Shown piece after piece: positions 10,988-57,598 of a DNA stretch of 64,000 bases. The position numbers were made by a program, and so were the translations under genes. How positions within the stretch are numbered: position 1 is the stretch's first letter; each line of letters starts with the position of its first letter. Source of the DNA: Picochlorum sp. SENEW3 (taxonomy: Eukaryota); assembly GCA_034226945.1 (NCBI GenBank), contig CP120456.1, positions 434,001 to 498,000 of the forward strand, given 5' to 3'. Under the pieces are notes generated by a model. The model saw only the letters and a list, made by a program, of their open reading frames with translations. It was not told the origin of the DNA and searched no databases.

Positions 10988-12964
10988 ATGGCGTGTAACG
11001 TGACAGTTTGCCACCACCGTTCTGCTGCTGGTTGCTGCTTTGAGCACGTACCCACCTCCAAAGCCGCAATGACAGTTTCAATAACTCATCAGACTGGTCT
11101 ATTGGGTAATAGAGTGAGATTTGGATGCAAATCATCCAGTAAGAATGGCAGTGCTGTGTTTGAGAGGAAGGCTCGTGTCGGCGTGGGACGCTGTCACAGG
11201 GTCGCCCGTGCCAGCCATTCTGATCAGGTTGCTGCAGGGGCTTCTTTGACAAGCAGAACTAGACCAGACTATATTCCTGGGCGTATTGATGATCCGAATT
11301 ACGTCAGAATCTTTGATACCACGCTTCGAGATGGAGAGCAGTCTCCAGGGGCATCCATGACCAGCGAGCAAAAGCTCGATATCGCCAGACAGTTGTCGAA
11401 ATTAGGTGTTGATATTATTGAGGCTGGGTTTCCAGTTGCTTCTCCTGATGATTTCGAAGCAGTCAAGGCGATTGCGACTGAAGTTGGGAATGAGGTGCAC
11501 CCAGATGGATATGTTCCAGTCATCTGTGGTCTTTCAAGAACGAGGGAGAATGATTTGAAGACGGCATGGGAGGCTGTGAAGATGGCAAAGAGGCCTCGAG
11601 TGCATACGTTTATTGCGACGTCGGAGATTCATATGAAATATAAGCTTCGAATGACTCCAGATGAAGTGATTCAGAATGCTGTGAATGCTGTGACCTATCT
11701 CAAATCTCTTGGGTGTGAGGATATTGAATTTTCTCCAGAAGACGCTGGTCGCTCTGATCCAGAGTTTTTGTACAAAATTTTGTCCGAGGTGATCAAAGCA
11801 GGTGCAACGACATTGAATATTCCGGACACCACGGGATGGAATCTGCCAAGTGAATTTTCTGGACTCATCAGCAAGATTATAGAGAATACTCCTGGCGCAA
11901 AGGATGTGGTCATATCAACACATTGTCAGAATGATTTGGGGCTTTCTACTGCCAATTCATTGGCTGGTGCATTTGCTGGTGCTCGCCAGGTTGAGTGTAC
12001 AATCAATGGGATTGGAGAGAGGGCTGGAAATGCGTCCTTGGAGGAGGTGGTTATGGCGATTGCTCTGCGAGGAGAGGACCAGATGGGAGGATTATGGACA
12101 GGAATTCGACCAAATCACATCTCGGCAACGTCAAAGATGGTGATGGAATATTCAGGAATGCCAGTGCAGCCACACAAGGCTATTGTCGGGGCAAATGCAT
12201 TTGCCCATGCAAGTGGTATCCATCAGGATGGTATGCTTAAGAATCCAGGAACGTATGAAATTATGAGTCCAGAGACAATTGGTCTTCAGCGAGGAGCTGG
12301 CGATGTTGGCGTTGTGTTGGCCAAGCTCTCTGGAAGAAATGCTCTGGGAGCAAGACTCAAAGAGCTCGGATATGATGTGAGCGAGGCTGAGCTGCGAGAT
12401 GTCTTCAAGAGATTTAAGGATTTGGCTGATAAAAAGAAAGTGGTATCAGACGAAGATATAATTGCTTTGGTGAATGATGAGAAGAGCCAAGCTGTTGCAA
12501 CCTGGACTCTGCGGGATGTACAGGTGGTGTGTGGATCTGCAGGCCTGCCAACAGCAACAGTCAGATTGGAGGGACCAGTGGACTCTGTCCTGAGAATCGC
12601 ATCTAGCGTTGGAACGGGACCAGTGGATGCAGCATATAAAGCAATAGATAGTATCGTAGGTTTAGAAGTTGATTTAGTGGATTATTCCATGGCTTCTGTG
12701 ACAGAGGGTATTGATGCCTTGGCCAACACACGTGTCGTGATTCGCCCGTGCAATGCGACCCTGAGTTCCATTCAATTAATTGAGAACGCTCAAGGAGCTA
12801 TCAGAGAACGAACATATACTGGCAACGCCGCCAGTGAGGACGTTGTGGTTGCATCTGCTCGTGCATACATTTCAGCCTTGAACAAGATGATTTCTGTATG
12901 CAAGCTGGAGAAGACATCCATAGAGGCATCAGAATCCAGCCGAGAAGAGCCAGTAAATGCCTAA
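10988..12964 (+). CDS. leuA: 2-isopropylmalate synthase, plastid-targeted
   Basis: [33 protein letters not shown]-terminal regulatory domain [10 protein letters not shown]-terminal transit-like extension. Confidence 0.97.
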
Positions 12965-13011
12965 TAGAATGCATTTTATTATTATACTACACAGTAATGC
13001 CTATATATCAT

Positions 13012-13530
13012 TCATCGCTGGTGACCATCTACGCCATGCTGTTGTTGCAGCCTTCGAAGCTCTTCTTCTTGCTCTTCTAAACTCGCCTTCTGCGTCTGCT
13101 TCTTCGTCTGGTGATACAGCACTATCAAATACCTATTCTGTACATTAAATCCTGACAAATGCTCCTGTGCATTCCGTGCATCATAAATATCTTCATAGAC
13201 AACAAAAGCAGTCCCTCTTGTATCTTTGTTACACCCCAGTCGAATCTGTCGAATAGCTCCGTATTTGCCAAATAATCCATATAAATCCTCTGACGTTATT
13301 GAATACGGAAGATTTCTAACATAGAGAATCCTGCGCGAGCGAAAAAAAATCATGTCAGTTTCACTTCTTTTTTTCAGGCTCACGTAGACCAACGCAACAG
13401 CCCTTCCTTCTTTGGTATGTGCCAAAAAATAAGCATATTATCGCCTATTTATCAGAGAAGAAGAACGCGCGTACCTATTCACCTCTGGAGCCAGTCGAGT
13501 AGGCTTTCCTGCCCTCTGGCTTGTTGCCAT
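13012..13530 (-). CDS. SF3B6: Splicing factor 3B subunit 6 (p14), 2 exons
   Basis: Exon 1 MATSQRAGKPTRLAPEVNR, intron 13331-13474, then RRM ILYVRNLPY...GTAFVVYEDIYDA...HLSGFNVQNRYLIVLY. Confidence 0.95.
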
Positions 13531-13732
13531 TCTAAAACTACTCACTATATCAGCCGCAGAATGCTTCTTTCGACTGTCAAATTATACTATGTTACAAAAA
13601 TAATAGAGTACATGGCGTAATGACATCATATCCATGCATGCATTGGATTCATTCGTCCGTATTCAAAAGGATCCATTTTTTCTCATCATGAAATGGCATT
13701 AGGAAGGATGGATCAGTCGAATGAATCACTCA

Positions 13733-15808
13733 TTATAGTATGGTGACATCATGGTCACCAGTTTTTCCATATCGATGCTGGCGTAACAAATTCGAGCGGC
13801 TCATAGTACTGCGTGAAGATACTTCTGCAGTTTGTTTCGGTTGCTCAGGCCTTGTGAAAATGTCACAGCTCTTGACAAAGCAAACTCCAAGATGTGGCAT
13901 TTCCTTCTCATTTGGTCGACTCGTTCTCAGATATTCCTGGATGTGGAGAGCCATTTTCGAGAACGATCCTGCCCAATTGTTCTGCTTTTTCAACCGTTCC
14001 AACTGTGACAGTGTTTCGGGGGGTATGTCCATTGTCTGTGATGAGTTTGGGCTTGTCACAAAGCATGGCAAGAATATCTCGCAATTTTCCTTCCCATCAG
14101 AAATCCGTGTTCCCCTTCCAACGGTTTGAATCATCTTCAGTTCGTTTTCTATTGCATGGATGTCTGCGAAGAAGATACCAGTAAGCTGTGGAATGTCTGT
14201 GCCAACTGATACAGTGGCTATGTTTGTGAGGAAGCCCATCTCTGATGATTTGAAAGGATCCAACCCATTCAGTCCATTACTCGCATTGACGAAGCAATTA
14301 CTTGAAAGAGTTTGAATCCGAGAATGCTCATGAGAATTCTTTTGGAAACCAAAGATGGATGACCCAGCCTCAATGTCTCTAATCTCTTCCTCACACAAAA
14401 ATGTCATGAGGTTTCTCAAGTTCACAGCTCTGGCAATTTTTTTAGAGCAATACGCAACGACATGCGTCTGGTTTCCTGTTGCAAACTCATACCATACTTT
14501 AAGCATCAGCAGCATTCTTTGAAGTTTCCATTCAGTCATTTCCATAGGTCGCTGCTTTTCAGTGCTGGCATCCAAAGGATCTTCAAAGGTGGAGCCTTGC
14601 ATCTCTGAAAAGTCGTTCCCCCGTGCTACATTCCACGCATCCCATTTCTCCACGAGTGACAGCAAATGATTTCTTATACTAGATGAACTGATTATAGCGT
14701 TGTCCAACAGGTTCAATCGAAGTGGGAGAACGACCTCATCTGTCAACGCATCCTTGTATGTGTACTTGCACATGGCTGGCCCGAAAACGCCTTTGACGTC
14801 ATTTTGGCATAAGAAAGTGCCCGAAGGAGACTCTTGTGATGGTGTGGAAAATCCATTGCTTACATTCTCTGGTTTGGATAGGGCGTTGGGAGTAGCAGTG
14901 AATGAAATTTTGAGCATGGCTACATCACTGTAATCAAGATACGTTTCCTTTGTAATCTTACCTTTGCTCTCTCCAGCAACCAAATGCGCTTCATCGATAA
15001 ACAGCATATCCACATTCACACCCTTTTCGGACAAAAGGCACATTAATCCCTTGTGATTACAGTTTCCAGCAGCGGAAGAGGTTGTCGTGATGACAATCGT
15101 TGGTCTGGAAGGGTTTTGCATAGATGCAACAGCCCCGACCTTGGATTTGTTCGGCACCTCCTTGCTTGAGCAGACACAAAAGCAGTCAAATTTTTTCATC
15201 TTGGAGAGTGATTCATATGTCTGTTGGACAAGATTCAAGTTCGGCTCAGTGATCAAGTAGACTGGGCTTTTGTTTGGATTCACCCGAACATCAGATTCTG
15301 CATGTGCAAGTATCATTTCTGACAGCACTCTCGTTTTGCCGGAACCCGTCGCAGCTTGAAACTGAGCCCGTAAGAACCTTTTATCACAAATGGTTGGAGA
15401 CAGTAAGAGTTCTTCAATCCTTGTCTGACCCCACACAATCTCATTCCGTAGAACCTTCCTCTGAGCTGAACTCCTGTAGTAGCCCGCGAGGAGATCATCC
15501 AGCTCCTTCTCACCCAAATCCATATGGGTCTTCATTGTATGATAAATATACTTTGTTGCTGGAAGAATCGCAACTTTGAATACAGAAAGCACGTCTTTTT
15601 GCCAATCTCTGAGATCACGTGGCTCGTCCTGGACAGAAGGTTCCACTTGATTCACAACGACTTCTGAATCAAGTGTGTTCCTCTGATCACCGAAAACAAA
15701 CTGTCCTCCTTGTAAGATTGAAACGTCTGGGCTTTGGTAGAATCCAAACACATTTCCGGAGAGAGTTTGGGCGTCGTAGCGCGTTGTCCGTTCGCACTTG
15801 GTTGACAT
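13733..15808 (-). CDS. Superfamily 2 helicase/ATPase of ResIII-like (prokaryote/virus-type) class
   Basis: Q-motif LRDWQ, Walker A AATGSGKT, Walker B FIDEAH, motif III SFTATP, motif V TVSVGTDIPQL, motif VI IQTVGRGTR. Intronless; first ATG at 15808 (frame open to 15850). Confidence 0.85.
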   Translation of the reverse strand: MSTKCERTTRYDAQTLSGNVFGFYQSPDVSILQGGQFVFGDQRNTLDSEVVVNQVEPSVQDEPRDLRDWQKDVLSVFKVAILPATKYIYHTMKTHMDLGEKELDDLLAGYYRSSAQRKVLRNEIVWGQTRIEELLLSPTICDKRFLRAQFQAATGSGKTRVLSEMILAHAESDVRVNPNKSPVYLITEPNLNLVQQTYESLSKMKKFDCFCVCSSKEVPNKSKVGAVASMQNPSRPTIVITTTSSAAGNCNHKGLMCLLSEKGVNVDMLFIDEAHLVAGESKGKITKETYLDYSDVAMLKISFTATPNALSKPENVSNGFSTPSQESPSGTFLCQNDVKGVFGPAMCKYTYKDALTDEVVLPLRLNLLDNAIISSSSIRNHLLSLVEKWDAWNVARGNDFSEMQGSTFEDPLDASTEKQRPMEMTEWKLQRMLLMLKVWYEFATGNQTHVVAYCSKKIARAVNLRNLMTFLCEEEIRDIEAGSSIFGFQKNSHEHSRIQTLSSNCFVNASNGLNGLDPFKSSEMGFLTNIATVSVGTDIPQLTGIFFADIHAIENELKMIQTVGRGTRISDGKENCEIFLPCFVTSPNSSQTMDIPPETLSQLERLKKQNNWAGSFSKMALHIQEYLRTSRPNEKEMPHLGVCFVKSCDIFTRPEQPKQTAEVSSRSTMSRSNLLRQHRYGKTGDHDVTIL

Positions 15809-15893
15809 TTCGTTTACAACTGGAATTGACTTTAAAACAATACTTGACAACTATTAATTGAACAAGTTTCAATATTTAATTGATTTTGAACAA

Positions 15894-15926
15894 CTAGTAC
15901 TTTTTGCCCGTGGCTACGCCACTTGC
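15894..15926 (-). terminator. Helitron 3' terminal hairpin and CTAG end (transposition stop signal)
   Basis: Plus strand: ctag at 15894-15897, gtggc-tac-gccac at 15910-15922; the outer stem is mismatched. Confidence 0.8.
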
Positions 15927-16113
15927 CGAATCTCAATGGTGCCATTTCGCGCCATTGCGCTCAAACGTCCCGAAAACCTGGGCTTGCAATCCATTGGCAC
16001 ACAGATTGAGGCATCCATCACCAAAGTTCGACGATCGGAAGTCATACACGTGGTTCCAGTTACACTATTCGCACATATGTATCGGCACAGCAATCATATT
16101 GGATCTATGTATA

Positions 16114-19100
16114 CTATCCAAGAGCTACCTCCTCGACCACCACCTGCTGCTGCTGCTGCTGCTGCTGCTGCCTTGGAAACACATCGCGGTACACGACATT
16201 TGCAAAAGAATATGGGTCTTCTTTGCCAGGCTGATAGACGACAATCCCATCTCTGGATCCTGTTCGCGAAAACGCAACATATGCCTGCCCATGAGAAAAT
16301 ACTTGCCTCTGGAGATACATGCCAATCTTTTCAAATGTGAGCCCCTGACTCTTGTTGATGGTCATTGCAAACGCTGGCTTGATGGGAAATTGGTATCTGG
16401 TGAACTGGATTTGATCCGGCAAAGCTCTTCTATCAGATGGAGAGAGTCCCATCTTTGTGAGGAACTGAACAGAACCCTTTTTATTCCCAGTCAAGAGCTT
16501 CACTTTGATCACATTGGTCCCCAAGTCAAGAACCACCATCCTTGTGCCATTGGTAATGCCAGAACTCGGGGCCAAGTTTCGAATACAGATAACAGGACAT
16601 CCTACTTTTAGCTTCAAAACGTGTGGAGGCAGTCCAGATATTTCCAGGGTATTGAGATACGACTCTGTGATGGGTATATTTGGTCGATTGCCTTTCACTG
16701 TGTCTCTGCTGAGGAATGTACTCATCTGTTGCTGCGCAAACGCCTCACCCAAAACACTGCTTGTCATGACCGCATTATTGATCTCATCGACCTCTTTGTT
16801 CGACACGGAGACAATGACACTCTTCGTCAAAAATTCCTCTTGTGCAGTCAAAGAACCCTCAATGCTGCCTTCCTCACCTTGAGGAGGACAGTCACGATAC
16901 CCTCCATAGATTTTTTCAATGAAGCCTTCAAGTGACTCTATTGAGCTTACAGAATCTTCGGAGTGAAATATCATTCTCTGTGGATCTAAAATCCGCACGT
17001 GTGCTTTATATTCATCTTCCATCTCACCAATGCTGCCGTTGCCAAGAGCAAGGAGCCAATGAGCAAATTCCTGTAATTCCTCTGCTTTTTCAGGACATGT
17101 CTGACGTACTTTAGAGACACGCATATTTTCTTCGAGCTCAAAATATTCGAAATGATGCCACAGAGTATGAGACTTGCTGAGTGATGAGTTGATTACTGCT
17201 GCAGGGGACCCTCTTGGAATCACTGGCAGGGTCTGACGGAAATCTCCACCCAGAACAACCACCTTGCCACCAAATGGCAGGTGCTTCAAATGCTGATGCT
17301 CTGCACCAAAAGCACAAATATCCCTAAGTGATCTATCAAGTGTCTCGTGTAGAGTTCTCGGCATCGCAGGGGCCTCGTCCCAGACTATCATCTTTGCCCT
17401 CCTGATGATCTGAGCCAATGTGGATTCTTTTGGGATGTTGCAAAACGAATCTGGGCCCGAGTCAATACTCATTTTAAACATCGAGTGCGCCGTCCTTCCA
17501 CCTGGCAGTAGACATGCAGCAACTCCAGAGGATGCTACCGCCAATGCAACATCGGCATGGGACCGAACCATACTCAGCAACAGGTGGTATGTGAATGTCT
17601 TGCCAACCCCACCTGGGCCAGAAAGGAAGAAACACGACCTTGTATTGGCAGCAGTGTCTGGCTCGTTTGAATCGCCTGTCGCTTCCTGTAAGGGTGCTAT
17701 TGAATATCCCAAGGCTGTAGCAATCTTACGGCAAAAGACCTTCTGCAATGTATTCGCCAAGGGCAAGTTTTGGTAAAAAAACTCCCTTTCTGCGACGGGA
17801 TCAAATTCTCCAGAATGTGATGCCTCTAGCAGCTCAGAAAAGATTCCTTCAAAGTCCTGAACTTCCGGAAAAGATACTCTTCTGAACTGCTCCTCCCCCA
17901 TCAGCTCAAGCAGCTGCAGTTTTATTTCTCCAAGCGCAAAATTTTCAGCTCGCTCCTTACAGACATTTCGCTCATGGTTTGTCAATACTCTCCCAGTCCT
18001 ATGAAGAAGATCTTCTGAGAACCGTCGATAATGGTCATCGCTCATATGGCCTTTGAATTCGCTCCAGAATCCTGCCAGATCACTAATTTGTGAGACAGAA
18101 ATGCAATTGACAAAAGCTGCTCTCATCTGGAAGGCTGTCGCTGAATGACTCATCTGCTGAAATGCAAGGGTCCATTGATCATTTCCTTCAAGCAATCCCC
18201 TCTGCAGACACGCAGCTCTGAATGTTGGACATACGGTCCTCTGAGGTTCTCCATTGTCGTCGTTTTCTATAACCGTTCGTAGGTCTTCAAAGCTTCTTGG
18301 CCCGGGAACATTCTGAAGCAAGAGCCTGATGAAAAACAATTCTCCATGATTTGGGTTTAACATCCGCATTCTTCCTATAGCTTCAGATTTATTTGTGCGC
18401 TCCTGCCATTCGTATCCATTTCCCCTACCTAAGTATGCCCATTTGCAAAACCTGACAAACTTTTCATAGCACACTGTTAAACACTCTGGGAATGCTGGTG
18501 CCTGGCGATGTTCAGATTGAGAGCCATGATTGGATCCCTCGCGTGATATTTGACTTTCATGGAGAAGAGATATGATTTGCTCGATATCATCGTTATCCTG
18601 AGACTCTCCTCTGCCACCATCCGGCATCTGGATAGAATAGGGCACAGGATCACCCTCTATGCTATGTCCTTGTAAATTCTCATATATCCTCACTTGATTC
18701 TCCCATTGTCTATACTTCGCATCATTGAACTCAAAATACTTCAATAACTTGGACGATAAATCTGGTTGCCTGCTCAAAGTATCAGTAGGCCTCACAATGG
18801 CAGGCCTCCCCTCGGGACCATGAACATGCAGCCTCACAATGTTTGGATACATTCCTTGAAGGGGGAATCCAAAGAAATGCCACGCTGCTTCCGAAGAAGA
18901 CACATACCTTGCATCTTGATACATCTGAATCTCGTTTATCACTTCTGTGTCGTCATTAGGTCGGACACCAAACTGCACTCTATCTTGCCCCTTGTATGCA
19001 TACTTGTACAAATACTTGATAGCCCCAATAAAGCCGCATGACTCCACATTCAAATGACAATTGAATTTCTGTAAGAGATACGGGTTGTAAGGAACGACTC

Positions 19101-21537
19101 TTTCATTCCACCCCTTCTGATCCACTGGCCTTCTATAAATTGGATATCCATTCGTCAATATAGTGCTTGCTGATAGCTGTTTGGGAAACCCTTTACTGCA
19201 GACCCTGCGCCCTCCTTCATCTTTCAAACACCTGTTATCACAGGTATACACGTCACCTCTTTTTGTACCATGCATCATGAGCTTGAGTACTTTGTCGCGC
19301 AGTGAACCACTGTCTGGTACGGTTGCATGAATGAATTGATTGACCTTGATTTCAGTGTCGATTTTGAATCCCTCTTGCATGGTTACCAACATGTGCATAT
19401 GTGGCAGCCCTCTCTTTTGCCACTCGACTGAGTAGCAGTACCCAGCAACTGGCCCAAACGATCCTCCTTTGATGTCTTCATCGATTAGAGCTTTCAGTTT
19501 AAGTTGAAAGACGCGTGCAACAATATCAGGTCGATCTGATGCTACCTGTCCAGGTTTCAATGCCCCTCGAATTTCCTCCCAGTCTGCGTTACACGTCATA
19601 GTTATGAAGAGATCTGGCATCCCTTTGTCAAGAATCATGGAGATCGCGTCTTGATAATGCTGCTCATACCACCTGGGAGATCCCTTGAAACCTGAGGATA
19701 AAATGATTCGCTGACCAATATCTTGTGCATTGGTATTCCCCCGACCAATCGAATCTTCCAGACTATTTGGATTGACTAATCTAAGCTCTTCTTGATGCTG
19801 CTCTATATATTTGAGCCTTCCGGAGCCCATAGTCATGTACTGGTCCACTAACCACTCCTGGAAGAGCCTCCCAGTCTTGTTGATGATGCAGCCATACACC
19901 TGATCAACAGGCATATCTCTATCATGCGTGAAGAATGCGGTGAAGTCTCGTGGAGTGACTTGATTCATCTGATTTTCGATGACATATGTGTCATCGTTGG
20001 CATCGTCACTCTCACTCTGTCCCTGTTCTTCTGCATCATTATCAACATTTGTATCTTGTCCTGTATTTGTTGCCATTCCCACATGCCAACCAAATTCTCC
20101 CCTGGGACACAAAAGAGGAAACCTCAAAGGGGTATAGGCACTTGCTAAATGTGTTATGCGGCGCAGAGGCGGTGCATCCTGCTCTCGAAATTCCCCAAAT
20201 ATTTCAAACCTACGCTCCAGGTCGACATCATCACCAATCTGCAGAATAGCCCCCACCTCGTTTCGATATAGCGGTTCATTATATCTTCTTTGGTCATTAT
20301 TAGAGGTGTTAAATAAAATCCTCATGTCCTGTGGATCGTTACCTCGCCGAATCAAATCACCAAAAGATCTGTACATGTTAACATATGGATTCCCCTCACG
20401 CTGCAACATGGCCTCCAGCTCTGCTACGACAGAATGTCGGATTCCCATTGTATTTCCTGCAACATTCATCCTTGAATCGGTCATTTCAGCACCGTCGACT
20501 ACCCAGAGCTGTGAAAATTTAGGCACCTGTCCCTCTGCAGGCATCACTGGACCCATCAGATGATAGACACCTCCTTGGATCAAAACACTCTTTGGGCCAC
20601 TCAAGTTCTGGTTCAAATCTACCAGCGTAGATGAAGCAAAAGAAAGCATGGTATTATATCGACGCATATGGTTGCGGATATCCATCAAAAGGACCTGCTC
20701 ATTTCTAACAGACACAACTGTGTGTCCATCACATGGCATCGTCAGCCACGTATTCAAAGGCTCTGGAGGTGGATGATTGTAAAGTCCAAGCAAGCAATTG
20801 ACCTTTCCTTTTCTGCAGCAGATCATACTGTTGTTCTTTTCCTCCCAGAACAACTTGGCATAGCAATGAGGGCACGTGTAAGTTCTATAATCTGTGGCAG
20901 ATTCATTTTCTGGTCCCCGTTTCAGATGATGTTCTTGGACGGACTCTGGGTCTGGATGCGCACCTCTGAGACCATCATACCGCCTCAATACTTCCCGCAG
21001 CTCTCTTCGAGGAACTTGTATGCTATGTTGAAGAGGTGCTTCTGCCTGCTGCTGCTCTTGACTTGTCGGACGGTAGCTGGATGTACTCAATGACACACTT
21101 CTTCTTGTAAACAGGGATGACCGATGAGAACTTATGTCACTGGAAGATCGCAGTGCGTAAGTTTCCAAATCAAATCTTACGGATGGCCTGCGGATGCGTG
21201 GTCCAGTTAAGACCACAGTCTCTTCTGCATTCTCACTCCTTCTTCCTCTTCCCCTCCCTCTTCCTCTTCCCCTTCCCATTCCCATTCCCCTCCCTCTACC
21301 TCTTCCTCTTCCTCTACCTCTACCTCTCCCCCGTCCCCTTCCTCTGGCTGCAGCTGTCTCAGACTCTGGCGTACTTCGTTGCTCTTCTACATCACTCCGA
21401 CTGGCTGCACGATTATTACATTCTAATCTCCTTCGGGTTGAATGTGACCTGGTATGAAGCTGAGGCTCTGCACTTGGGCTTCGAGGACGAACACTTGGCG
21501 ATAGGTTTTGCCCACCTTCCAATCTTTGTGGATTCAT
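16114..21537 (-). CDS. Helitron RepHel transposase (HUH Rep + PIF1-like SF1 helicase), 1807 aa
   Basis: Zn finger CPHCYAKLFWEE...CCRKGKV; Rep motifs PDLFITMTCN, VEWQKRGLPHMHML, KYLYKYAYKG; helicase motifs GPGGVGKT, IVWDEAP, GGDFRQTLPV, AFAMTINKSQG, FSHGQAYVAFSR. Confidence 0.97.
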   Translation of the reverse strand: MNPQRLEGGQNLSPSVRPRSPSAEPQLHTRSHSTRRRLECNNRAASRSDVEEQRSTPESETAAARGRGRGRGRGRGRGRGRGRGMGMGRGRGRGRGRGRRSENAEETVVLTGPRIRRPSVRFDLETYALRSSSDISSHRSSLFTRRSVSLSTSSYRPTSQEQQQAEAPLQHSIQVPRRELREVLRRYDGLRGAHPDPESVQEHHLKRGPENESATDYRTYTCPHCYAKLFWEEKNNSMICCRKGKVNCLLGLYNHPPPEPLNTWLTMPCDGHTVVSVRNEQVLLMDIRNHMRRYNTMLSFASSTLVDLNQNLSGPKSVLIQGGVYHLMGPVMPAEGQVPKFSQLWVVDGAEMTDSRMNVAGNTMGIRHSVVAELEAMLQREGNPYVNMYRSFGDLIRRGNDPQDMRILFNTSNNDQRRYNEPLYRNEVGAILQIGDDVDLERRFEIFGEFREQDAPPLRRITHLASAYTPLRFPLLCPRGEFGWHVGMATNTGQDTNVDNDAEEQGQSESDDANDDTYVIENQMNQVTPRDFTAFFTHDRDMPVDQVYGCIINKTGRLFQEWLVDQYMTMGSGRLKYIEQHQEELRLVNPNSLEDSIGRGNTNAQDIGQRIILSSGFKGSPRWYEQHYQDAISMILDKGMPDLFITMTCNADWEEIRGALKPGQVASDRPDIVARVFQLKLKALIDEDIKGGSFGPVAGYCYSVEWQKRGLPHMHMLVTMQEGFKIDTEIKVNQFIHATVPDSGSLRDKVLKLMMHGTKRGDVYTCDNRCLKDEGGRRVCSKGFPKQLSASTILTNGYPIYRRPVDQKGWNERVVPYNPYLLQKFNCHLNVESCGFIGAIKYLYKYAYKGQDRVQFGVRPNDDTEVINEIQMYQDARYVSSSEAAWHFFGFPLQGMYPNIVRLHVHGPEGRPAIVRPTDTLSRQPDLSSKLLKYFEFNDAKYRQWENQVRIYENLQGHSIEGDPVPYSIQMPDGGRGESQDNDDIEQIISLLHESQISREGSNHGSQSEHRQAPAFPECLTVCYEKFVRFCKWAYLGRGNGYEWQERTNKSEAIGRMRMLNPNHGELFFIRLLLQNVPGPRSFEDLRTVIENDDNGEPQRTVCPTFRAACLQRGLLEGNDQWTLAFQQMSHSATAFQMRAAFVNCISVSQISDLAGFWSEFKGHMSDDHYRRFSEDLLHRTGRVLTNHERNVCKERAENFALGEIKLQLLELMGEEQFRRVSFPEVQDFEGIFSELLEASHSGEFDPVAEREFFYQNLPLANTLQKVFCRKIATALGYSIAPLQEATGDSNEPDTAANTRSCFFLSGPGGVGKTFTYHLLLSMVRSHADVALAVASSGVAACLLPGGRTAHSMFKMSIDSGPDSFCNIPKESTLAQIIRRAKMIVWDEAPAMPRTLHETLDRSLRDICAFGAEHQHLKHLPFGGKVVVLGGDFRQTLPVIPRGSPAAVINSSLSKSHTLWHHFEYFELEENMRVSKVRQTCPEKAEELQEFAHWLLALGNGSIGEMEDEYKAHVRILDPQRMIFHSEDSVSSIESLEGFIEKIYGGYRDCPPQGEEGSIEGSLTAQEEFLTKSVIVSVSNKEVDEINNAVMTSSVLGEAFAQQQMSTFLSRDTVKGNRPNIPITESYLNTLEISGLPPHVLKLKVGCPVICIRNLAPSSGITNGTRMVVLDLGTNVIKVKLLTGNKKGSVQFLTKMGLSPSDRRALPDQIQFTRYQFPIKPAFAMTINKSQGLTFEKIGMYLQRQVFSHGQAYVAFSRTGSRDGIVVYQPGKEDPYSFANVVYRDVFPRQQQQQQQQQVVVEEVALG
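21240..21345 (-). repeat. Coding hexamer-like repeat giving an (RG)n tract in the RepHel N-terminus
   Basis: cctctt/cctcta/cccatt units on the plus strand; RGRGRG...GMGMG in translation. Confidence 0.85.
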
Positions 21538-22879
21538 GAGACTGTGGCCTATGGTATATGTATCATTCTTTTAAACTCGGTTTTAAATAACATGCTATTC
21601 GCGAAGCGCAGTCGAATCTCTGAAAGGATACAGATGACTGGATTGACTTGCAAGTTGACTTTCAGAGTTCTGAGACTTTAAAGTTAGGGGAAGCGCCCTC
21701 TGGCTTGTGATTGCAGCATGAGGCAGCACTGCGTCGTACAATGGATTGGTAGAGGACATGCAATCCATCCAGATCATGCCACAATGCGTGATGATCGCGT
21801 CATTCGATGAGTGCTACGCCCTTGCAATGGGGCCACGCGACCGCACAGGCAACTTTCGCTCAGGGGCTCTAAACCTCCCAGTCAGCCAAACACGTTAAGC
21901 GTAATGAAGTAAATAGAACGATGGGCATCCAGGATCCTCCAAATTTGGAGGAATTATGGCAGGGTGCCTCGATCGAGAACAAATTCGAATACAGTTATGG
22001 TTTTGGCCAGGTTTCTATGCGATCCCTGCATGGAAAGCCTTATCTCCCGGCAGGTCTGGTCGTATTAAAATAGAAGTTTCTATTGAGATGGAGAAAGAGG
22101 CGTAAGGACCCCGCAAGGCCTCACGAAAGCCGAAAAACGTGAATTTAATCGCTTCGCGCACAGGCCTCTATATCATTTCCCGCCCCATTAAGTGTAAGTT
22201 TCGACATATTTTACGTTGTTTCTAATTTTATCGCCTTTTTTTGGCTTTTTTTCTTAACTGTGTTTGATATCACTGCCTGATTGCTTGATATGCGGCATGT
22301 CCATCATGTCCATCTAGCAAAGTGGACACCTTCAAAACTGGACACTATTTTGTCCCTGGCAAGGGACTGTGTGTGTGCAGGCTTATTGGCGGATTCAGAG
22401 TGGCTTTGTCACCAAATGCAGGTTGAAATATATCAAAACTACCAGTCTGGATTGGATTTTATGGTAGAAATGCGCTACCTCGAAGGCTCTCGTGGTTCCA
22501 CACAAGGTGGAACGTACTAGTACCTCGTGCCAGGTGGTTGTTGACAACGTTCTAGAACTGATTGCTCGAGCCATATGGCCAAACATCAAGCTCTTTCGGT
22601 CGAAGAGTCTATTTGACAGACGCCTCTACCCTGCAGCTCAGTCTTGAAGTTCAAACTACCGATCCCACGTATACATCAGTTCGATTTGTTATTTTATTTT
22701 GCAACAAGATATTTTATCAATATGTGTTTAAGAAGAGGAATTCCTCAAGCGTATTGGTGATGGCTCGTTGAAGAATGCAGTTGCAACTGGTTGGTTACTT
22801 GACGCCAATATTTCACACGTTGCTGTATTTCATCTACTGTTGATTGATTATTGGCCAGAATCACAGAAAGTAATCTAAT

Positions 22880-24182
22880 ATGGTGCATATCAAGGCTGTA
22901 GTGGTGGTATCACTGTTTTTCCTTCTCAATGTTGGCCTGTCCCTGCTGAACAGGTGGGCCTTGGGAGTGAAAGGCTTTTCATTTCCTATATTCCTGACCA
23001 TGTTTCAGGCATTGTTCCTGTTCACTTCTATAGTATGTTCTTCTGTATTCATTCCAAAGGTTCGAGGGATGATAGGGACAAGTAGGAGAACAATGGTGAA
23101 GGAATGGAAGGGAGTAGTGTGGGTTGGCATTTGGACCTCTCTCAACGTCGTCCTGAATAACTTTAGTCTAGTCTATATAAGTCTGTCTTTAAATCAGGTC
23201 CTACGGTATGTACATTTTTATCATGTGCGATACTATCATGTGGTGTGGTATACTGATCTCAGTGGCATGTATATGGATGTTGCTGCAGGTCATCAATTCC
23301 TCTTGTGACTGCTGTGGTCTCATCGATACATGGGAGGAAAATGCCGACAAAAGCCGAGGTATTTGGGCTGTTCGTTTTATGTGGGGGTGTAATAATTGCT
23401 ATAGGAGAGGCATCTGCGAACGGAAATGCGTTTGGGGTGATGCTCTGCTTGGCGAGTGTTGTTGCAGGCGCCTATATGCTCACCACCACTGCACATACAT
23501 TGCATGAGAAGATGTCTTCGTTTCAGTTGGCATTTATGACTGCTCCTGTGACGGTGTCGTGTCTTGCACCTCCATTTTTTGTGTTTGAAAGTGGCGTTGT
23601 GGCCGAATACGTGGTTCTAAATCCACACATGACAGCCATGATATTGCTGTCTGGGTCTATTCTTGCATCAGCATACAATGTAGTTCACAATGAATTGGTC
23701 GGTATAGTTGGCCCTGTCACGACGACTGTTTTAGGACAGGTTAAAATTGTTTCACTGATGCTATTGAGTGGTATACTGTTTGGTACGCGTTGATGTAGTA
23801 GTGGTGTCTGAGTTACTATTGTGTACACCAGGTCTTAATGGTTTGTTTCTGTGCAGGGGAAGGAAAAGATTTCTCCCTTAAAATGAGTATCGGTTGCTCC
23901 TCGGCTATATTGGGATTCAGTATATATTCGTGGGCCAAGATTAATCAACAGCTGGATGCCGCCGCGACCCAAAAGGCTGCTGCTGCTGGTAAAAAGTTGT
24001 TCCGTACACCATCTGGTTTGCGGGGCAAGAGGCCTCCTCGTCTGAATGTCGCAGACTCTCCTGAGGCGACATTGCCTGGGGTCACATCCCCGATGGTAAC
24101 TCCTATTCAAGATACGCCTTCTAGATCTACGTCAATGCGTACAAGATCTACGCGAAAGTCAAAGAAGAGTGCATTTGTTTGA
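22880..24182 (+). CDS. Nucleotide-sugar/triose-phosphate translocator (TPT/SLC35) family transporter, 3 exons
   Basis: LNVGLSLLNRW...FSFPIFLT; LNNFSLVYISLSLNQVLR; GPVTTTVLGQVK; multiple TMs. GT-AG introns at about 23206-23288 and 23782-23856. Confidence 0.9.
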
Positions 24183-24205
24183 TCTGTTTCAGAATGATTT
24201 GAACA

Positions 24206-24470
24206 TTTATTTACGTGAAATTTTAGTATCCCGAGTTTGTCGCCGCTCCACTGATCACCATGAACGGAGTGTCAGGTTTTTGTTTTACTGCTTGAAAATT
24301 GCTGACAACATTGCTCTCTCGTGTACCAGCCGCAAATCTCTTCCTTTGTGCCATCTCTTTGGCTACTTGCCTCACGTACTTCTCCTTTGTGTTCTGCCTG
24401 GGTTGAGTTCCATGAAAGAAATGGCAAAAAGCTATGGCATTCTGGGTCAGAGAACGCTGCATTTTATATG
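24206..24470 (-). pseudogene. Diverged duplicate fragment of the SART1 3' end
   Basis: FCHFFHGTQPRQNTKEKYVRQVAKEMAQ...GTRESNVVSNFQAV aligns with SART1 LCHSFHGIQPSQNTKEKRMRQAAKEIAQ...GTRESGIVSNLQAV; both share atttatttacgtgaaa at the stop; indels present. Confidence 0.9.
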
Positions 24471-25163
24471 AGGAGTTGGTCAGATGCTGTAGAATTCTGT
24501 AGATACTACGAGGTCACTAGAAAACCATGCTTGGATTTGAAAGTATCTGCAGGAAACTTCCCTTTCAGACGCTACCCCAAGTAGACAAAGGTACACGAAA
24601 GTAAAGAATGATAGATCAGAAAACAACGATGTTAAAGCAACTGTGCAGCACAATTTATTTGAATTGGACTGCCAAAGACTACAAGTCTAGCAGCAAATCA
24701 ACTGTTCAATCACAGAAAAAAATGAGACGTTTGTCTCTCTAATCATATCCGAAGTGACACAACAGCATGCAAGCCAAAAATACCAAGAAATGCAGTGCTA
24801 TGCTCTTTTTGTGTCTAATCTATAGATGGCCAGTCCTATCACTGACACATTCCCCCATGAAACAGTTACTGCTGTTTCAGAGCATCTCATCGGTCTATAA
24901 GGAGAGAAACACATTCCCAATCTTCCCTCAAATATCTCATAGCATCAAACAAAGCAGTAGTCTACACCGAGAGACTTCGGACGAATGAGGATGATTTGAG
25001 CCTTGTGCATCATATTTTCAAACACACATTGGTCCCTTCATCCCCACGTCAAAGAGACCATGCAGCTGGACTGCAGTCCAAGAGCAGCCAAGAAGAACTG
25101 ATTGGACCTAGTTTTAAACAAGAGATCATGCACGATCCTTGCCTGATGTACTAGAATGTACTC

Positions 25164-54758: not shown

Positions 54759-57598
54759 ATGTACACAACGCTCTTGGAATACAGTAGCAGGTTTTCAGGG
54801 GTGGCCCGGTTGGCCATGAGATGGAAAGAGAGTATTCAAACCATGCTTCTTAGTCTCCTGGGTCTCTCTAGTGTGTATAGTATGTGGAGTATGGGGCTGT
54901 CGCCTTCGAGTTGGGTTGTCGTTTCTTTGAACATGTGGTGCGCGTGCTTGGTTCTCCGAGGTATGATTTCATTGTATATTTGTCTTCTATTGGTGAAAGG
55001 AGACTCATGCTTGGATGGTTTGGGTTGCAGGGTGGACGCGGATGGACCTATGGGAGAAGAGAATTTTCCTTTGGTCCATGATTAGCATTTTATCTTTTGT
55101 ACACTTTCTGCTGATGGATTCGGATTTCAAAGGATGGGAGTCTGTGTATTACTTTTGTGGAAAAGATATGGAATACTGTACGACGAGTTATCGGTGGAAT
55201 TTGACGGGGTGGCGTAAAGCCATGTCTCTATGGAATTTCACCTTGTCGAGTGCGCTGGGCGCACAACGGCTGTTGATAGAGGCTGGTTTCGGTGGACTTT
55301 TGCCTGGAGAGGAGGCTATCCCCCGAGAGTGCTTTGTTTCTATTGTGTGGAGGCTTGTGCCGTTTTGGTTGAACAAGTGGGAGAGTAATTTTGGGGCAGA
55401 GTGCTCTTCCATTCTGTTCGAGTTGCCACATTTTGCCCTAGAGTTGTTGATTATTCTGCCAATGGTGCAGATTATGGCAGGGAGGATGAGGGTATTGGCG
55501 AATCCTCAGATGAGAGCGCCTCATGTGGTGCAGCGAGGGGAAGATTTGGATAATATTGTTCCAGATGTTATGCAGTGCACATGGGTTGTGGATGCATCGC
55601 AGCAAGGTTTTTGGTCACGGTTGAGGAAAAACAGATGGCCGCTTGTCCTGATTTCGGGCATTACGATTCGTACGTTGATGTAGTATATATGAATGTATAC
55701 ATGTTTGGGGGGATAACCAAAGTGATGTGGGTGATGTAGTTGCTGGAGCGAATGCGTTATGCATGCCGTTGTACTTGGAACACACAGCAATTCATGCAGT
55801 CCAATCGAAAGGGTTTGTGGAGTATGAAGCAGAGCTGGCGCATGTTTGGGATGTGAAAGGGAACTTTTCAGATGGAGAGTTGTTTAGAAATGAATCCTCG
55901 GCTGATGTGTTGATTCTACATGACAATACAACGATGCATTCGTGTGTGGTGGATGGGGTTGATTCTTGTGGCACGCATGTCCAGAGGGGCATTGTGACGT
56001 GGATGATGGAGGAGGGTATGGTGCAGTATAATCAATCAACGCATCAGATATTATTGAATTCATCGGGTTTGACATTACATCCTACTTGGGCTGTGGGGGC
56101 AATAGAAGCCTCCGTGAAGAATGAGAGCACTGTGAGCTCGGACAGACTCGCTCATGTCATTTTTGGGGGACGGTTTGCAAATCTGACGTCGAAAGGCGAT
56201 GGATCTTTTGTTGGCTTACAGCAAGAGTATATGGACAAAGTTCACAAGAATACATATATCCATGGAAGGAATTATATTGTGGACTTTTTCATGGGAAAAC
56301 CTCCCAAAGATGCACTCAAATTTTATAGTATTGCTCTCAAGCATGCACGAGAGCTCAACAGAATGGCGTCAACTGAGCATAAAAACTTGGTGCCTTTAAT
56401 CGAAGGCGCCTTGGCAATTATGCGTTTATCGTGTGAGCGCTGGTTTTCTTTGCTGGCTGTATTTGTTAGCTTCATTATATTTAGAGATCCACCTCCTCAT
56501 GTGAGGGAGTACATTAAGTTTATAGCAACAACGTGTAGAGTGTTCCAGCAGACCATATTAATGACCTTCCCAGCAGTGTGCTGGGGATATGGAGCTGGTT
56601 TCGTATTTTCTTCTTTTGCTAGTGTTGTTTTCTGGGCAGGCCCAACGATACGATTAATAGAACGGATCAAAAAAGTGGCCACAGAGGTTCAGCCAATGCA
56701 CTGGCACCCAGCCACGGTGGAAGAGATAGAACGAATGGGTGAGAATTGTGCAATATGTTGGGGCGATGTCGCAAGCCAGATAGCAGGTGAACAGGCAGAA
56801 GAAGACTCCCATGCTATGGGGTTAACGTGTGGCCATGCATATCACAGAAAGTGCTTGCTTGAATGGCTTCATTCCTGTTATGGTCAATCACGGTCAGCCA
56901 CGTGCCCCATGTGCCAAGCCCAGGTGCCACTTCACGTGAAATACAAATTTGAATTTCCATTCCGAAGCAATGCAGCTCCAGATGAAGGAAATAACAATGC
57001 TGTGCGAAACAGGAGGCAAGAGGGAATTCCTGGACTCGTCGCATTGGCAGGTCAAATGCCAGAGGAATTTGTTGGCCGCTTTGAAGTTCCAGTCGGGCAC
57101 ATGGCATTCATGGATGAGGTCAGAGAAGAAGAAGAAGAGGAAGAGGAAGAGGAAGAGGAAGATATGCCACAGCAGCATCATGCTGTGATGGAAGCTAGCA
57201 CCTCTGGTGGATATTCAGACGATGGTGGTGCCAACAGGAATGACATGGCTGAGCAGGCAAATAGATTCTACTTTAGATTTGAGCACAGACCTCCCCCATC
57301 TGCTGTAGAGAGCTCTGTGGTACATGACTTGCCTGGAACGTCAGGAATCCAACCCAGTGCTGAGGCTCTTATTATTGATGACCAACAGCAGACATCATCA
57401 TCAATACATCTTCCAGATCAAGAAGAGACTACTGCAGCAGACAAGGCCCCCATAGATATAGACGATGATGCAGTGAGTGATCCTTCGCCTCAACAGGAAG
57501 ATGATCAGCAACACCTAGAACAGAATAATAATACAAATAAACGGCGCCTGCAGGGTATCTATGCTCGCTTGCGACCACGAAGAAACCGAAACACGTGA
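54759..57598 (+). CDS. Multi-pass membrane RING-H2 E3 ubiquitin ligase (multi-exon)
   Basis: CAICWGD...LTCGHAYHRKCLLEW...CPMC; upstream hydrophobic ORFs 54759-55085 and 55015-55683 are probable exons; 5' structure approximate. Confidence 0.75.

Follow-up and report, generated by a model that had tools for sequence, protein, structure and literature searches.

Within the 64,000-nucleotide stretch of Picochlorum sp. SENEW3 contig CP120456.1 analysed here (positions 434,001 to 498,000; hereafter the window, with position 1 as its first letter), two long uninterrupted open reading frames (ORFs) lie on the minus strand between 13733 and 21537. One encodes RepHel, the transposase of a Helitron, and the other a superfamily 2 (SF2) helicase, and the question raised by this locus is whether the two belong to a single mobile element. 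The first-pass annotation of the window had proposed a new type of Helitron with two helicases, in which the SF2 helicase would be either cargo or a partner gene; as a fallback, it considered a horizontally acquired or viral gene whose 5′ region had been hit by the Helitron. The layout that it described is correct in every detail examined. The RepHel ORF contains no stop, the intronless helicase ORF of about 690 amino acids (aa) follows on the same strand (305 bp separate the RepHel stop from the helicase ATG, against the roughly 300 bp given), the motifs AATGSGKT, DEAH, TATP, GTDIP and QTVGRGTR are all found in the helicase ORF, both ORFs lie between ordinary host genes (SF3B6/p14 on one side and a TPT-like gene on the other), and the CTAG that it mentioned was located (Table 1). 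The interpretation placed on this layout fared differently. Very probably, a canonical autonomous Helitron of the HLE1 type was recently inserted beside a resident SF2 helicase gene, and the two helicases are not parts of one element; the proposed two-helicase architecture is, on this explanation, not present at the locus.

The empty site in close relatives

Twenty public runs contain part of the interval 13001-23000. Four of them (X4, X6, X15 and X17), which come from four different studies and include two metagenomes, were examined by placing their contigs on positions 11000-25000 at 85% likeness. In each of the four runs a contig joins 15892 straight to 22267 and leaves out 6374 bp. The position of the joint has a one-base ambiguity, since an A stands at either edge in plus-strand reading, and the side lengths of the joint are 31, 125, 255 and 255 letters. 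No base is gained or lost at the empty site, and no target-site duplication is present in any of the four runs. The bridging contigs are at least 96% alike to the window (about 97-99%). Record 26 of X6 differs from it at 1 of 303 and 0 of 125 positions, and record 4 of X15 at 13 of 666 and 3 of 309. Record 11 of X17, a contig of 3265 bp, begins at 14663 inside the helicase gene, reaches 15892 and resumes at 22267, to end within the TPT-like gene at 24325; it differs from the window by about 3%.

Because these contigs join 15892 directly to 22267, the helicase gene adjoins the TPT-like gene in the relatives, and nothing lies between the two in any empty-site contig. In the empty state, a divergent intergenic region of 697 bp separates the ATG of the helicase (15808) from that of the TPT-like gene (22880). 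All that is said here about helicase synteny in close relatives is drawn from the empty-site contigs of these four runs. The first-pass annotation had suggested comparing the interval between SF3B6 and the TPT-like gene in relatives, and this comparison revealed the empty site, with the 6374-bp Helitron precisely absent in all four runs. The state of affairs that it had named as speaking against its own proposal, a helicase gene syntenic in relatives without the Helitron and other Helitron copies ending at the CTAG, is the one that was observed.

The Helitron is young, polymorphic and probably still active. It has an intact ORF, and the X6 strain, which is about 99% identical to the window over 428 nucleotides (nt), lacks the insertion; for these reasons the element can be considered young and probably still competent. 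Polymorphism between nearly identical strains likewise suggests that it is probably active.

Ends and class of the Helitron

The ends of the Helitron are fixed independently by the empty-site joint. In minus-strand reading, the element was inserted between a host A (22268) and a host T (15893). A distance of 85 nt separates the 3′ end (15894) from the helicase ATG at 15808, which is thus located outside the termini; with the CTAG as the end of the element, the helicase cannot be regarded as cargo or partner of a two-helicase Helitron. The intervening 85-nt stretch (15809-15893) is the remnant of the helicase's own upstream region on that side. The stem of the 3′ subterminal hairpin is present in both the minimum free energy and the centroid DNA folds. 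Comparison of the two ends in inverted orientation revealed no terminal inverted repeats (TIRs): they agree at 3 of 16 terminal positions, and the longest such match measures 4 nt, as against a mean of 4.6 for shuffled sequences.

Canonical HLE1 elements, as described in the available parts of PMC4778049 and PMC11417382, are characterized by 5′-TC, CTRR-3′ and a subterminal palindrome, and insert between A and T. The Picochlorum Helitron carries every HLE1 membership feature that was examined. It resembles canonical Helitrons, such as Helibat1/Helraiser of bats and the plant Helitrons, in having a single RepHel ORF that combines an HUH Rep domain with a PIF1-like superfamily 1 (SF1) helicase. 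According to the same parts of PMC4778049 and PMC11417382, it is also alike in its 5′-TC and CTAG-3′ ends, in the hairpin about 12 nt before the end, in insertion at A/T without target-site duplication and in the lack of TIRs; internally deleted non-autonomous derivatives are a further point of likeness. It differs from these examples in its occurrence in a trebouxiophyte with a compact genome, and in a RepHel protein that is 29-40% identical to the best 120 of 2040 matches and bears a long N-terminal (GR)n tract. The markers of HLE2/Helentron elements, namely endonuclease/DUF6570 and TIRs, were not found in the Picochlorum Helitron.

The arrangement also bears on 3′ transduction. As far as the available part of PMC4778049 describes it, an intact, co-oriented gene located 85 nt past the terminator is the starting arrangement for read-through capture, and in this respect the locus is alike. 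It is unlike a transduction in that there is no sign of capture: the helicase gene is located beyond the ends, the empty site contains it too, and it was not seen attached to other copies. No account of a Helitron in Picochlorum turned up in a search of the available literature; one paper in which both words occur uses them only in its methods and data sections.

Other copies and deletion derivatives

Helitron ends at 15892/15893 and at 22268-22270 abut differing, unrelated flanks in all four runs, one unrelated flank being common to X4 and X17. Because the unrelated flanks begin right there, other insertions can be said to stop at the same CTAG/T and to start at the same A/TC. An internal-deletion joint from 16559 to 21501 was observed in three of the four runs (X6, X15 and X17), and one from 16554 to 21504 in X4. 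The resulting derivatives of about 1.43 kb retain both ends together with the first about 12 and the last about 148 RepHel codons (15894-16559 plus 21501-22267); they are non-autonomous and exist in other strains and in metagenomes. P0312, a protein of 143 aa encoded on a metagenome contig of 1493 bp, matches RepHel from M1667 onward with 91% identity and fits such a deletion derivative. The RepHel interior is nearly uncovered in the four runs, which is not read as absence. No second Helitron copy is present inside the 64-kb window. The sole other Helitron similarity in the window, at 57123-57162, is a low-complexity (GR)n-like tract inside the ORF at 55763-57598.

The RepHel transposase

The HUH motif, the tyrosine motif just downstream of the Rep domain and the Walker A motif are all intact (Table 1). 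No RPA, OTU or endonuclease domain and no DUF6570 were detected in RepHel with Pfam at E<=0.01. The codon usage of the ORF and its GC content at third codon positions (GC3) are host-like. In a search of 5.8 billion clusters, the best 120 of 2040 RepHel matches were full-length and contained no near-identical full-length protein. The closest long relative found is P0313, a partial protein of 734 aa from a 13-kb ENA contig that is 66% identical over aa 1057-1791; it shows that a second Helitron lineage, related to this one, exists elsewhere.

Two repeats were noted in the RepHel ORF. The long (GR)n tract of the N-terminus coincides with a hexamer/18-mer tandem repeat (TRF, 21236-21345), and the C-terminus contains a poly-Q run at 16144-16171 (nine CTG on the plus strand). 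Contigs of other runs seem to break at both.

The SF2 helicase and its family

The helicase ORF is open from a TTG at 15850, and the ATG at 15808 is the start in all relatives. Pfam assigns the protein to DEAD (1.7e-12, 47.9 bits; cut-off 26) and to ResIII (6.4e-11, 42.9 bits; cut-off 22.5), and the label "ResIII-like" given to it earlier is right. The score against Helicase_C (17.3 bits) is below the cut-off of 23.5; the family member P0160 reaches 29.9 bits. Among 13 aligned members of the family, 109 columns are invariant, including all helicase motifs (the core motifs I, II, III and VI among them) and the signature F-x-CQND-xx-G-x-FGP. This signature occupies aa 346-358 of the helicase in P0002 numbering, which corresponds to about 14777-14815 in the window.

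The closest proteins are KAI8110475 and KAI8107112 of Picochlorum sp. BPE23, which are 96-97% identical to the helicase and are encoded on two contigs of about 1.24 Mb that look like two haplotypes. A Picochlorum renovo protein belongs to the same 90% cluster. A word-indexed search yielded nine relatives with 41-97% identity, one of which is an MMETSP transcript. A profile search of 1.84 billion representatives yielded seven clusters at E<=1e-30, four of them full-length (628-711 aa), and no longer, fused form of the helicase at that threshold; beyond it the scores fall to 1e-24 and below, where generic ResIII-type SF2 proteins are found. The helicase is a member of a small, uncharacterised SF2 family of picoalgae, and its most likely identity is that of a nuclear DNA-dependent ATPase/translocase within the ResIII-like SF2 group.

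The metagenome scan with the helicase profile gave 79 pattern matches that led to four loci with only distant relatives. Three of these loci hold relatives of 41-43% identity, upstream of which 2.1, 0.6 and 10 kb of DNA are available. No RepHel similarity was detected by tblastn in any of the four loci, the upstream DNA of the three 41-43% relatives included. The 10 kb upstream of the 43% relative (locus L003) contain an SMP-domain gene, a glutamyl-tRNA reductase gene and an ankyrin-kinase-RING gene. The notion that the helicase recurs with RepHel was not sustained: the helicase is kept at the empty site in all four runs, the 3′ flanks of other Helitron copies are unrelated, and RepHel is found in none of the four loci. 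The fourth locus (L004, 9509-10159) encodes a generic SF2 helicase of 25% identity on a 20-kb contig with 71.5% GC, which is probably bacterial and lies outside the family.

In comparison with the ResIII-like SF2 helicases (the bacterial and phage DEAD/DEAH-ResIII proteins, RadD, PbeA and the HA-domain proteins), the Picochlorum helicase is alike in motifs I, II (DEAH), III (TAT) and VI (QxxGRGxR). It is distinguished from them by features of its family, namely an N-terminal region of about 150 aa, the conserved insert with F-x-CQND-xx-G-x-FGP and a C-terminal tail; moreover, it has no HA domain, and its similarity to named families is weak throughout. The HA domain (PF03457) is absent from the window helicase in Pfam at E<=0.01 and occurs only in the outgroup matches P0166, P0167 and P0173, with P0171 at 26.4 bits, below the cut-off of 28.4.

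Origin of the helicase gene

The helicase may have been acquired horizontally by green picoalgae, from bacteria, phages or a giant virus, and be now fixed, the Helitron having merely hit its 5′ region. This origin is rather unlikely, although part of the evidence speaks for it. The family is tiny, with the seven clusters at E<=1e-30 followed by the jump to 1e-24, and among named families the best matches, all of them weak, are to prokaryotic or phage types, namely the phrog_16 DNA helicase (2e-19) and PbeA (7e-12), followed by the dnd restriction domain (1.8e-7) and RadD in the PDB (2e-5). In the ESM-Atlas, the closest clusters consist of ResIII helicases from bacteria or Uroviricota, which serves as a lead only. 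However, the codon usage and GC3 of the helicase are host-like: the correlation of its relative synonymous codon usage to that of 18 window ORFs is r 0.67, as compared with a host leave-one-out mean of 0.68, and its GC3 is 0.465 versus 0.451 ± 0.034 in the host. The members of the family are 40-45% identical across distinct algal lineages, share the 109 invariant columns and include the MMETSP transcript, which fits a long vertical residence. The IMG/VR scan for helicase relatives gave 37 pattern matches, none of which was confirmed. Furthermore, KAI8114655 of Picochlorum sp. BPE23, a protein of 1719 aa that combines a ResIII core with numerous ankyrin repeats, is among the nearest outgroups and carries the CQND...FGP signature of the family. 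The common signature points tentatively to a broader algal SF2 group with an ankyrin-fused branch.

Of the fallback offered by the first-pass annotation, the part concerning a separate gene whose 5′ region was hit by the Helitron is upheld by the empty site, whereas the "horizontally acquired/viral" part receives no support from the host-like codon usage, from the IMG/VR result or from the Picochlorum protein among the nearest outgroups.

Alternative explanations of the locus

Several observations weigh against a recent insertion beside a resident gene, or limit how far it can be taken. Placement of contigs at 85% likeness makes foreign joints possible in the metagenomes. The X4 side of the joint is only 31 letters long. 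In addition, X4 has a second joint, from 15891 to 22335, which skips 6443 bp with a side of 30 and is not explained, and one X4 contig has 39 foreign letters in place of the hairpin region (15920-15922). These two features may stem from an empty allele that has diverged and from a subfamily whose 3′ end is different; alternatively, they could be foreign joints of the metagenome. The hairpin itself is short, and the complete 71-nt stretch does not fold more stably than shuffled sequences (z -0.91). The examined runs consist of contigs, from which rare variants are dropped and which carry no copy number, so that a rare helicase-carrying derivative is possible; similarly, the copy evidence for the helicase and the Helitron comes from the window and the contigs of other runs. 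Apart from the window, the only support for the occupied site comes from runs X1-X3 of organism A, which is possibly the window's own source. There is no RNA run among the 20 listed, and X15, labelled "RNA?", proved to be probably DNA.

That the occupied site is confined to the window and the organism A runs can also be raised for an assembly artefact, in which the Helitron would have been mis-joined into the locus while the real genome has the empty site; the next-to-absent depth over the Helitron interior in the four runs would agree with it. Such an artefact is nevertheless very improbable. The junctions are exactly of the Helitron type (A/TC ... CTAG/T), with no extra or missing base relative to the empty site, and a chance mis-join would not reproduce exact Helitron integration. 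Moreover, the three organism A runs contain 0.73-0.99 of the words of the stretch.

A further possibility accepts the insertion and adds that a read-through derivative carrying the helicase is already in the population, or that read-through from RepHel now drives the helicase. Little credence is given to it. If the former were true, the Helitron would have been caught at the moment of gaining another helicase, one from a different superfamily.

The composite Helitron, in which the SF2 helicase would move with RepHel and the true 3′ end would lie downstream of the helicase, is extremely improbable. The two intronless ORFs do share one strand at a distance of 305 bp, and Helitrons transduce 3′ flanks by read-through (about 11.7% of events for intact Helraiser, in the available part of PMC4778049). 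However, nothing but 15894-22267 is missing from the empty site, where the helicase is retained in all four runs, other copies end at CTAG/T with unrelated flanks, no family member at E<=1e-30 exceeds 711 aa, the available upstream DNA of three distant helicase relatives contains no RepHel, and no relative of the helicase was found in IMG/VR.

Putative course of the insertion and its significance

The preferred explanation, a Helitron inserted beside a resident helicase gene, corresponds to a rolling-circle insertion at an A/T site in the divergent promoter region of about 700 bp between the TPT-like and helicase genes. By analogy with the Helraiser work, as presented in the available part of PMC4778049, the HUH Rep domain would nick at the 5′-TC, the PIF1-like helicase would unwind in the 5′→3′ direction, the hairpin and CTAG would end the transfer, and the single strand would integrate at AT. 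The Helitron landed 85 nt upstream of the helicase in the same orientation, the adjacency being accidental, and would have severed the helicase from most of its former upstream region. Transcription of the helicase would then have to start in the last about 220 bp of the Helitron or in the 85-nt remnant, or to proceed by read-through from RepHel.

The locus presents an intact, strain-polymorphic Helitron in a very compact green-algal genome, with ends proven by a clean empty site. In Picochlorum, a genus employed in algal biotechnology, such an element could provide a natural case of Helitron activity or be put to use as an insertional-mutagenesis tool. Since the insertion probably parts a host gene from its promoter, it also constitutes a natural test of the effect of a Helitron on the expression of a neighbouring gene.

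Features of the locus and flanking genes

Table 1. Positions in the window of the Helitron, the SF2 helicase gene and the flanking host genes.
Feature	Position	Strand	Basis
Whole autonomous Helitron (HLE1 type), 6374 bp	15894..22267	minus	Empty-site joint 15892 to 22267; termini read
5′ terminal TC	22266..22267	minus	Sequence reading
5′ non-coding part of the Helitron, presumed RepHel promoter/5′ untranslated region	21538..22265	minus	Between 5′ end and RepHel ATG
RepHel transposase ORF, 1807 aa, uninterrupted	16114..21537	minus	ORF and Pfam
Rep (HUH endonuclease) domain, aa 555-718	19384..19875	minus	Pfam Helitron_like_N 4.1e-51
HUH motif (HMH, aa 713)	19393-19401	minus	Motif reading; intact
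Tyrosine motif (YLYKY, aa 842)	19000-19014	minus	Motif reading; intact
PIF1-like SF1 helicase domain, aa 1297-1507	17017..17649	minus	Pfam PIF1 2.1e-64
Walker A (aa 1307)	17596-17619	minus	Motif reading; intact
Pif1 2B domain	16522-16659	minus	Pfam Pif1_2B 7e-17
3′ subterminal hairpin: GC-rich stem of 5 bp, loop of 3 nt, 12 nt before CTAG	15910..15922	minus	Sequence; DNA fold
3′ terminal CTAG (CTRR)	15894..15897	minus	Sequence; empty-site joint
Host DNA between Helitron 3′ end and helicase ATG, 85 nt	15809..15893	minus	Empty-site joint and sequence
Resident SF2 (ResIII-like) helicase gene, 691 aa, intronless, outside the Helitron	13733..15808	minus	ORF, motifs, relatives, empty site
Helicase motif I	15332-15355	minus	Motif reading
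Helicase DEAH	14984-14995	minus	Motif reading
Helicase motif VI	14105-14128	minus	Motif reading
SF3B6/p14 gene, main exon (host flank)	13012..13425	minus	4.6e-40 to PDB p14/SF3B6 chains; RRM_1 5.3e-18
TPT-like membrane transporter gene, about 3 exons	22880..24182	plus	ORFs; contiguous with helicase in empty-site contigs

The TPT-like gene is transcribed away from the helicase, and its Pfam TPT match is weak (4.4e-4, below the cut-off).

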